DNA from: Bacteroidales bacterium UBA6680
Lineage (GTDB): Bacteria > Bacteroidota > Bacteroidia > Bacteroidales > UBA6680
Direction of reading: 5' to 3'
Assembly (NCBI GenBank): GCA_002454955.1
Contig: DKJY01000166.1
Span: forward strand, 427 to 64,426
Length of the DNA: 64,000 nucleotides
Position numbers: made by a program. Below are positions 12,001 through 15,000 of the stretch, piece after piece. How positions within the stretch are numbered: the stretch's first letter is position 1; each line of letters opens with the position of its first letter.

Positions 12001-15000
12001 AGATTATAGGATTCAATTAACCTTATACATTTATTTGCATCACTAATTGATAAATAGTTGTTTATAACAGATAAGTTAATAGCCATAACCATACCAATTG
12101 CAATAGCATTGCCGTGCGATATACCTTCAATAACTTCAATGGCATGACCAATAGTATGACCGAAGTTAAGTTTGCGTCTTTCTCCTTGTTCTTTCTCATC
12201 TATATTTACTATAGCACTTTTTATCTTTATAGATTCATATACAAGATGTACTATTGAACTTTTATTTCTATTTAGAATAGTATTCCTATTTTTACCTAGG
12301 TATTCAAATATATCATCAGAAGCTATTAAGGCGTGTTTAATAATCTCTGCCAAACCATTGTTGAATTCATCATCTGAAAGAGTATCTAATGTATATGGAT
12401 CGCAAATTACGAATTCTGGCTGAGAGAATGTTCCTATCATGTTTTTGTACCCCATGAAATTAACACCATTTTTACCGCCTGTACTTGCATCAACTTGCGA
12501 TAACAGAGTTGTGGATACAAAACCAAAATCTAAACCACGCATATAAGTTGTTGCAACATATCCTGTAATATCGCAAACAATACCTCCTCCAAAACCAACA
12601 ATAAACCATGATCTATCGGCATTAATAGTAACTAGCTGGTTGTATATTTTTCTTACTGTGTCAAGAGTTTTATTACTCTCACCAGTTTTAATAACAATAG
12701 TTTTGTAGTTATTTAGAAATTCACGGTATATCTCGAATAGGTTATTATCAGTAATAACTACAATATTCTCTCTGTTTATATATTGGTTGATATTCTTATA
12801 TGATTCTCCAATAAATATTGATGAACTACTTGTACCCTTTATTTCTATTTTTTTCATCAGTTGATATCTGTTTTTAATAAACATTGATGCTTTTTGAGTA
12901 AATGATTATTTTTTTATGTTCATTTAATAAAGCAGTATCTAAACCAAAGGTATTAAAACATAATTTAAAGTATATGTTTTTTGTTAACAAGCTCCAATAA
13001 TATTTGATAAGCCCATAAGCATTAATAATAAACCCGGTCTGTTTATTTAGCAAACAGACCGGGTAAAACAATAATAAACTACTAATTCAACCTATTCAGA
13101 TAGGTTTCAAGATCTTTATCTCCTCTTCCTGATACGTTCACAACAACTGTTTCGTTTTTGTCAAATTTTATCTCGTCAAGAACAGCCAGTGCATGTGATG
13201 ACTCTACAGCAGGAATAATTCCTTCGGTTTTCATTAAATTATCAGCGGCTTTTAATGCTTGATTATCGGTAACTGCAACACAGTTAATTCTCTTACTTTT
13301 ATACAAATGTGCAATAAGTGGACCGATGCCCGGATAATCTAGTCCTGATGATATAGAGTAGGAATCTTTTACATTTCCTTCTTTATCCATTAGAATATAA
13401 CTTCTGCTTGCATGAAGTATACCTATTTCTCCTTTTGATAATGATGCTGCATGTTTATCAGTATCAATTCCCATACCTGCAGCTTCTGCACCATATAAGT
13501 TAACACTATTGTCGTTTATAAAGTGGTAGAACGCTCCTGTAGCATTACTTCCCCCACCTATACATGCAATAATATTATCAGGTGAATCCTTACCGGTTTT
13601 CTCTTTAAACTGTTCTGCAATTTCATAACTTATTATAGACTGAAATTTAGCAACCATGTCTGGATAGGGGTGTGGTCCTACAACAGAACCTAGTATATAG
13701 AATGTATCATCAGAGCTATTTACCCAATCGTTAATGGCTTCGTTACAAGCATCTTTAAGTGTTTGAGAACCTGATATAGCTGCTATAACATTTGCACCTA
13801 ATAATTTCATCCTTCCAACATTAGGAGCTTGTCTTTCAATGTCTTTGGCTCCCATGTGTACAGTACACTCCATTCCAAATCGGGCACACACTGTAGCTGT
13901 TGCAACACCATGTTGCCCTGCTCCTGTTTCTGCAATAATCCTCTTCTTTCCTAATTTTCTTGCAAGAAGAATCTGACCAATTGTATTGTTTATTTTATGG
14001 GCACCTGTATGATTCAGATCCTCTCTTTTGAGAAAAACATTAGTGTTATACTTTTCAGATAATCGTTCTGCATAGTATAGTGGTGTTGGTCTTCCGCAAT
14101 AATCCTGAAGTAGATTTAGGTACTCTTCTTTGAAATCTTTTGAGTCAATAATATCTGAGTAAGAGTCTTTTAGCTCTTGGATATTTTCTTTTAAAATTTC
14201 TGGGATAAATGCACCACCAAATTCACCATAAAAACCATCTTCATTAGGAATAAATTTTACCATTGTTTTTTCATTTAATTAGTTAAAAAATAATTGTTTA
14301 TATGTTTGTTTCCGGAAACCATTTTAAAAGCAGAGGGCTCATCGTGATTGATGAGCCCTCTGTCTAGAATATTATATACGGGTATCTGATCACGATTTCT
14401 TAACCGGAATAAGCCACCAACGCCAAATATTCATTATTGTATTCATATCTTAATATTCTTCTCTATTTAAGTTAATCTGTTTATCAGCAATATTAAATAT
14501 AAAAAAACCCGTTGCAATTGCAACGGGCTTCTGATATCTTAAAAATATACTATGCACAAATCGCTCTTGCTATTTTAAATATTCAAGAGTGCGCCACCAA
14601 TATGTATATGTAATATTTTCTATTTTCATCTTTCTTTGTGTTCTATGAACCACAACAAATATATAACTAAATGCAATAAATATGCTACATTTGTTCAGAA
14701 TGATTTGTTAAATTTAAAACACAAACTTATTGAGTACAATATCAGATATAATTAAAAACAGATCAGTAAGAGAGACTTGTGTGAGAAAAGTATCATCTTT
14801 CGTAGATAGATATTTTTCTTACATATTGGTTGTTTTACTATGTGTTGTGTTGTCTGTAAACTTTTATAAACTAAATTGGCAAACAATAATACCAACAGAT
14901 TTTGATGGTAGATACATGGCCAAGAGTTATCTGATTTATGAGTTTAATCATATAATTGCATCATTAGATTTACGAATTATTGGAGCTCTTTTTTATATAT

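Follow-up and report, generated by a model that had tools for sequence, protein, structure and literature searches.

Two Trp Leader Units Upstream of trpB

The stretch of DNA analyzed here comprises 64,000 nucleotides of Bacteroidales bacterium UBA6680 (contig DKJY01000166.1; this whole 64 kb stretch is referred to as the window), in which trpB is preceded by a pair of short open reading frames (ORFs) with closely spaced Trp codons, each followed by its own intrinsic terminator. The presence of these two units, which had been noticed in an earlier reading of the window from its letters alone (the sequence-only reading), is confirmed. All features of the tandem-leader region lie on the minus strand, and coordinates are those of the whole window. 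The trpB gene (14263..13082) encodes a protein of 393 aa with a PALP domain and 64–91% identity to proteins annotated as TrpB, and is the sole gene demonstrably downstream of both units.

The promoter-distal position is taken by unit b, and unit a lies upstream of it. The −7 box placed just upstream of unit a by the sequence-only reading is the sequence TATATTTG (14663..14656), 26 nt 5′ of the leader a ATG and kept in the related loci L001 and L021. The −7 consensus of Bacteroidota is reportedly TAnnTTTG, and on that basis we take TATATTTG to be a candidate box of this kind. Leader peptide a, MKIENITYTYWWRTLEYLK* (14629..14570), includes a tandem TGG TGG (WW; 14599..14594), and orthologous WW leaders occur in L001, L021, L025, and L027. 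The hairpin regarded as possible for this unit is part of the minimum-free-energy fold: GCGCACUCUUG (14594..14584) pairs with CAAGAGCGAUUUGUGC (14569..14554), these being regions 1 and 2 of unit a (14594..14554 overall), and the leader a stop codon is immediately 5′ of region 2. Terminator a, GCCCGUUGC-AAUU-GCAACGGGU followed by T7, is recovered by folding, with its hairpin at 14528..14507 and the T7 ending at 14501; the start given previously, 14529, is one base 5′ of the opening G (14528). A simple terminator scan also picks up terminator a, as 13 pairs at 14532..14503.

Leader peptide b, MNTIMNIWRWWLIPVKKS* (14446..14390), has three Trp codons within four codons (WRWW; 14425..14423 and 14419..14414), and its orthologues are MITILNIWRWWLIPVKKS, MTIQTQQYWWWQTEIPIYNS, and MTLDRQKQWWWQTKIPIQ. 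Region 1 of unit b (14423..14402) begins with the last base of the first Trp codon, includes the other two complete, and is predicted to pair with region 2 if the leader is untranslated. Region 2, AAUCGUGAUCAGAUACCCGU (14397..14378), runs across the UGA stop codon and would serve as the 5′ strand of an antiterminator. Its putative partner under ribosome stalling is region 3, GGGCUCAUCAAUCACGAU (14358..14341), which takes in the 5′ arm of the terminator together with its loop and reaches 3 nt into the 3′ arm. Terminator b (14362..14326) has a 13-bp stem, CAGAGGGCUCAUC/GAUGAGCCCUCUG (14362..14331), and a CUUUU tail (14330..14326). Within these elements, ATCGTGAT (14396..14389), across the TGA stop codon, is the exact complement of ATCACGAT (14348..14341), a stretch made up of the terminator b loop and the three adjoining nucleotides of the 3′ arm.

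The 402-nt region that holds both units folds with a z-score of −4.29 relative to shuffled sequences, and both terminators are present in the fold. Short ORFs of the relevant type (8–35 codons, with WW or WxW) number only four in the window, counting both strands (128 kb), and exactly two of the four have a terminator (stem of at least 8 bp) on the 3′ side: these are units a and b, adjacent to each other and directly before trpB. Thirty random windows generated under a Markov-1 model with the same dinucleotide statistics had a mean of 4.0 such ORFs, none of them with a terminator.

Conservation Among Close Relatives

The layout of two leaders followed by trpB and aroBDAC recurs in L001 (a Bacteroidales metagenome-assembled genome, with 91% TrpB identity) and in L021/L022/L024 (90%), as well as in L025/L026 (72%) and L027 (69%; the contig begins inside leader a). 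The leader peptides diverge (e.g., MNLLITINGLNWWHSQISTR for leader a and MTIQTQQYWWWQTEIPIYNS for leader b of L025), yet WW or WWW is retained in every relative, and both hairpins persist down to 69% TrpB identity, even though the two units come to lie closer together, with a spacer of 13–20 nt instead of 54 nt. The sequence-only reading had proposed conservation of the Trp codons and hairpins as a check, and both terminators additionally show compensatory stem changes. RNAalifold, applied to five sequences of the clade, predicts both terminators. One pair of terminator a is U-A in three sequences and C-G in two (L025 and L027), and the pair next to it is U·G in L001 and L021; in terminator b, a GC-to-AU change occurs within the clade. 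The inner helix of unit b between regions 1 and 2 (CGGUU:AAUCG) is retained with one-sided changes. A long-range pairing between the two Trp-codon regions, also proposed by RNAalifold, was disregarded as weak and rich in G·U. A metagenome scan with TrpB yielded only relatives with canonical operons, at 63–70% identity.

In L025 (5692..5698), the ATG of leader a starts 2 nt past the panD stop codon. Thus, the trp leader of this relative must be transcribed from within or through panCD, and its terminator a would also end panCD transcripts.

Tandem and Single Leaders in Other Bacteroidota

A pattern scan of species-representative genomes, with the pattern built on the terminator of unit b, returned 39 true Trp leaders among random matches. 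In Prolixibacteraceae (Draconibacterium, Mariniphaga, Maribellus, and Tangfeifania), the leader precedes trpEGDCFBA, and the scanned leader is the second of two units: a type 1 unit followed by a type 2 unit is found ahead of trpE in at least 34 of 36 loci. Unit 1 encodes a peptide of the form M..NTIWLPWWGLLT* and has the terminator CCUGCUC..GAGCAGG-U7, and unit 2 encodes M..NIWWW(R/H)SNFLQ..* and has the terminator CGGCUCAUCG..CG(A/G)UGAGCCG-U8. Hidden Markov models (HMMs) built from Prolixibacteraceae only assign unit b of the window to type 2 (E 1e-7) and match unit a weakly to type 1 (E 0.002–0.01), with no cross-matches except a marginal type 2 match on the Trp codons of unit a (E about 0.07–0.1). 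Given two distinct leader types in a conserved order, the pair is not a recent local duplication.

Other Bacteroidota examined have a single leader, namely Prevotella (L057, L107, and L141), Salinivirgaceae (L158), L028, L150, and L152. Two units in series, which the sequence-only reading had called unusual, are not peculiar to this genome, since Prolixibacteraceae also have them. The Prevotella and Salinivirgaceae relatives share the order leader-trpB-trpEGD. The terminator stems of single-leader relatives differ, and these leaders share the design in which a segment at the stop codon is complementary to the terminator loop: AUCGUGA:UCACGA in L150 (2403..2540), GUGAGUG:CACUCAC in L158 (about 4090..4215), and UUGUGAACA:UGUUCACAA in L028 (1428..1560). 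A more generic terminator pattern, AGCCCGTYGC..GCRRYGGGYTTTT, proved too unspecific, with only the single leader before trpB-trpEGD in L158 a true Trp leader among 119 loci.

A toxin–antitoxin pair is inserted between unit 1 and unit 2 in L074, L084, and L098 (partly in L122; L116 and L139 are cut). This cassette consists of a nucleotidyltransferase (Pfam NTP_transf_2/Polbeta) and a HepT-like protein (PF01934), and the TGA stop codon of HepT overlaps the leader 2 ATG (..AAAATGA..). From its position between the units and this overlap, the cassette would be under the control of attenuator 1, and it may be translationally coupled to leader 2.

Predicted Antiterminator Structures

The antiterminator of unit b and its type 2 counterparts was assessed in an alignment of 43 sequences (A1). 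The complementarity between the stop-codon segment and the terminator loop and 3′ arm, which the sequence-only reading had pointed out in the window, is not only exact there but covaries across the alignment. The helix AUCGUGAU:AUCACGAU is paired in 90.2% of cells, vs. 22–49% when the partner is slid by one to three columns, and four pairs have changes on both sides (e.g., one pair is CG in 18 sequences, UA in 14, and UG in 9, and another is UA in 38 and CG in 3). The terminator core GGCUCAUC/GAUGAGCC is invariant in all 43 sequences, and the terminator stem is paired in 99.1% of cells. Because four antiterminator columns are shared with the 3′ arm of the terminator stem, the two helices exclude each other. 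The motif CGUGAAGAG is conserved regardless of reading frame, the stop codon being either the UGA within the motif or a UAA 12 nt on, which argues for constraint at the RNA level. Helix 1:2 of unit 2 (CUUUUUAC:GUGAAGAG) is paired in 88% of cells, and the slid controls are also high because the sequence is U-rich; for the sequestration of region 2 by region 1, predicted energies are therefore the main basis. Another candidate antiterminator of unit 2, UGAAGAG paired with the 5′ arm (CUCAUCG), is 78% paired with an internal mismatch in 40 of 43 sequences, lacks covariation, and is neither supported nor excluded.

In Prolixibacteraceae, the unit 1 antiterminator is formed by GUNAGGAG, right after the stop codon, and CUCCUNAC, which comprises the end of the terminator 5′ arm and the loop. 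A variable position of this helix is UA in 13 sequences, GC in 9, CG in 5, and UG in 2, and the observed level of pairing was reached by 0 of 2,000 shuffles. For L080, the alternative fold of unit 1 predicted with the terminator 3′ arm withheld (−17.6 kcal/mol) is close in energy to the terminator (−17.8 kcal/mol), and falls to −7.5 kcal/mol with a ribosome at the stop codon.

Folding under ribosome masks gave a consistent picture for unit b of the window. For the states with a ribosome, RNA was masked to 13 nt past the base that opens the A-site codon, which is a standard value for the footprint, and the terminator 3′ arm was withheld. In the untranslated fold, region 1 (14423..14402) is paired with region 2 (14397..14378). 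With the ribosome stalled, GUGAU/GAU/CCC of region 2 pairs with AUCAC/AUC/GGG of the terminator (−8.4 kcal/mol), and with the ribosome at the stop codon no structure is formed (0.0 kcal/mol). The alternative structure appears in the stalled state only. These folds bear out the masking logic of the sequence-only reading, in which stalling frees the stop-codon segment and a ribosome at the stop codon covers it. The mutually exclusive structures that were to be sought by folding are thus found for unit b; for unit a, the alternative is only weakly predicted in the window clade, where the candidate antiterminator GCAAGAGC:GCCCGUUGC has a predicted energy of −5.8 kcal/mol in the stalled state vs. 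−2.2 kcal/mol with a ribosome at the stop codon, again with the 3′ arm withheld. Antitermination at unit a in the window genome is inferred from homology with unit 1 of Prolixibacteraceae.

Proposed Attenuation in Series and Its Alternatives

The attenuation interpretation offered by the sequence-only reading is supported by these comparisons and predicted folds. We consider it probable, at roughly 0.7, that the region is a two-stage, ribosome-mediated transcription attenuation system that senses Trp-tRNA, with its two stages in series ahead of trpB. Measured from the T-run of terminator 1 to the leader 2 ATG, the median spacer is 14 nt (0–71 nt, leaving aside four loci with an inserted cassette), and none of 37 loci has a TAnnTTTG box in this interval. 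The shortness of the spacer and its lack of a promoter box suggest that the two units act in series on one transcript. This single transcript would begin after the TATATTTG box and carry both attenuators into trpB. When a leader is untranslated, or its ribosome has reached the stop codon, region 2 would be paired with region 1 or masked, respectively, so that the terminator forms and the polymerase stops. When charged tRNA-Trp is scarce, the ribosome would stall on the Trp codons and mask region 1; region 2 would then pair with the loop-proximal part of the terminator, by which the hairpin is blocked or delayed and the polymerase reads through. Because read-through into trpB must pass both checkpoints, expression would be the product of two read-through fractions, and this multiplication would lower the basal leak and make the response wider and steeper. 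Ribosome stalling, kinetic competition, and the multiplicative response are elements of the model that we infer. With so little spacer, the T-run falls within the leader 2 initiation region, which also adjoins the 3′ arm of terminator 1, and the state of unit 1 may thereby also affect ribosome loading on leader 2.

Several properties of the window and its relatives weigh against this interpretation. The T-run of terminator b is short and weak in the window (CUUUU; it is U6 in L001). In the window, 10 bp of the lower terminator stem stay free of the unit b antiterminator, and a pseudoknotted terminator might still arise from them; the corresponding pairing is down to about 5 bp or unclear in L025 and L027. 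For unit a, the weak helix GCAAGAGC:GCCCGUUGC loses a pair in L025, where a U-to-C change in the arm is matched in the terminator and not in region 2. Both units score below the Rfam gathering thresholds. Finally, the terminators are thermodynamically favored in every fold; since they are always the optimum, as in Escherichia coli, the attenuation model is a kinetic one.

The possibility that both ORFs are chance short ORFs beside ordinary terminators, with no regulatory role, would gain from the AT-richness of the window, in which short ORFs are abundant, and from the same sub-threshold Rfam scores. Against it stand the rarity of WW ORFs in the window, the adjacency of the two terminator-bearing ones right before trpB, their absence from all 30 random windows, and the conservation and covariation of both units; it is already contradicted by the comparative data, and we regard it as extremely improbable. 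A narrower alternative is that unit b alone works as an attenuator in the window genome and that unit a is a decaying relic, perhaps serving as a leaky terminator or insulator of constitutive action, or as a source of a trans-acting small RNA or peptide like Sinorhizobium rnTrpL/peTrpL. The low predicted stability of the unit a alternative structure, its failure to covary in L025, the presence of only two Trp codons, and the weak match to the unit 1 profile of Prolixibacteraceae would all fit such decay, and trans action is on record both for trp attenuator RNAs after their release and for leader peptides (PMC6614838; PMC7298713). Yet the WW ORF, its placement relative to hairpin 1:2, and the terminator are kept over 69–100% TrpB identity while flanks and other codons diverge, a translated WW ORF is needless for a constitutive terminator, and the homologous unit 1 antiterminator covaries strongly; a relic is therefore judged unlikely.

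The two units could also sense different inputs, in a two-signal logic comparable to mgtM and mgtP of the Salmonella mgtCBR leader; for example, unit 1 (or a) might respond to peptide-dependent ribosome arrest, free tryptophan, or another amino acid, and unit 2 (or b) to tRNA-Trp. The units are of differing type and are retained as a pair, leader 1 of Prolixibacteraceae (..NTIWLPWWGLLT) is almost invariant including the Pro codon between its Trp codons, and tandem attenuators with different signals have a precedent in mgtCBR (PMC3641672). In both leaders, however, the Trp codons are placed so as to control region 1. Synonymous positions of leader 1 are nearly invariant too, mostly inside predicted stems, which points to constraint on the RNA, and in the window clade the leader a peptide is unconserved beyond WW (MKIENITYTYWWR.. 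vs. MNLLITINGLNWWH..). Different inputs for the two units are accordingly considered very doubtful. A looser form of non-redundancy, in which the halves of a two-checkpoint device differ in input, threshold, or timing, and in which the pair is maybe retained in the window lineage to gate an orphan trpB for indole salvage, is put forward tentatively, as rather improbable. For instance, the near-invariant unit 1 (..IWLPWWGLLT in Prolixibacteraceae) could work by way of a nascent-peptide or RNA feature beyond codon hunger, or the RNA or peptide released from it could act in trans.

Genes Around the Leader Region

Downstream of trpB, a hairpin (13064..13032) is followed by the gene cluster aroB-aroD-aroA-aroC (12884..8961). 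No other trp genes were detected in the window by tblastn with TrpE, TrpG, TrpD, TrpC, TrpF, and TrpA, so that trpB is an orphan there; it may have a role in indole salvage, or the remaining trp genes may be elsewhere in the genome. A TAnnTTTGG box (TACCTTTGG in the window) lies 5′ of aroB and is conserved in all relatives (about 12884..13082 in the window, 5170–5310 in L001, 7176–7310 in L025, and 1438–1545 in L027), and a separate promoter for the aro genes is thus probable. The idea that the aro operon has a leader peptide was considered and rejected, because the interval from trpB to aroB contains no short ORF rich in aromatic codons and has this box instead. In L025, an 11-bp hairpin (AAGCAAGCAC..GUGCUUGCUU) is immediately 5′ of the aroB ATG.

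Between terminator b and the trpB start there is a perfect 12-nt palindrome, GTTTCCGGAAAC (14319..14308, minus strand), which is present in L001 and L021 and absent from L025 and L027; a protein may bind there, or the palindrome may be no more than a small hairpin. On the plus strand, divergent from the leader region, lies a 359-aa ORF with a TTG start (14730..15809) that matches nothing in Pfam; its syntenic counterpart in L021, called as 182 aa, is likewise without a family.

Comparison With Known Systems

As the sequence-only reading stated, Trp leaders have been predicted computationally in Bacteroidota: the Rfam family RF01692 (Bacteroid-trp) is a Trp peptide leader of this phylum predicted by Weinberg et al. 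(2010; PMC2864571, Table 1). Its consensus, AUG...UGGUGGUGG in a long hairpin, ends at the start of a terminator and aligns over its full length to both window units, unit a scoring 28.8 bits and unit b 26.3 vs. a gathering score of 49. RF00513 (Trp_leader) has a full-length, sub-threshold match to unit a only (26.6 bits, E 0.0031; gathering score 41), and the 1:2 hairpin of unit a aligns, again below threshold, with the hairpins of both families. At gathering scores, no Rfam family was reached in the window or in L001, L025, L028, L033, L080, and L107. The published account of RF01692 presents one element, and nothing on tandem leaders was found in it (PMC2864571). A literature search, with most subscription journals outside its coverage, likewise found no prior description of tandem Trp leaders in Bacteroidetes.

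The window units resemble E. coli trpL (RF00513) in having a short ORF with adjacent Trp codons, helices 1:2, 2:3, and 3:4, and a terminator before trp genes. E. coli has one such unit and the window has two in series; moreover, the 3′ strand of the antiterminator is the terminator loop plus adjacent arm nucleotides in the window, and the whole 5′ arm in E. coli trpL. The range of trp expression in E. coli is that of TrpR repression multiplied by one attenuator, and no TrpR-type repressor is known in Bacteroidota. If the proposed mechanism holds, a second attenuator could therefore give this phylum a range like that of the repressor-times-attenuator system of E. coli.

Tandem regulators are known from other systems. 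In the Salmonella mgtCBR leader, the signals for mgtM and mgtP differ, being ATP for the former and proline or tRNA-Pro for the latter. There, two short ORFs share one leader, and each steers which stem-loop forms and whether the coding region is transcribed (Lee and Groisman, 2012; PMC3641672); that operon is concerned with Mg2+ and virulence, whereas both ORFs in the window have Trp codons and a complete intrinsic terminator of their own. Firmicutes trp operons reportedly have tandem T-box leaders. Tandem riboswitches are also known (Welz and Breaker, 2007, as cited in PMC2864571). In such riboswitches and T-boxes, as in the proposed trp system, two full sensors of the same metabolite stand in series, an arrangement thought to be more digital or to have a wider range; the ligand or uncharged tRNA is bound directly there, and in the window the sensor would be the ribosome translating the leader ORF.

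Leader-peptide attenuation is textbook knowledge, and Trp leaders in Bacteroidota were already predicted; what is apparently new is a pair of different Trp attenuators in series, conserved in two clades of Bacteroidales. The comparison adds about 40 unannotated examples whose antiterminators are supported by covariation and which the current Rfam models miss at gathering scores, and the orphan trpB, probably under tight control by Trp, may have a bearing on indole cross-feeding. If the proposed mechanism is true, the tandem-sensor principle of riboswitches, T-boxes, and the mgtCBR leader would extend to classical amino-acid attenuators.

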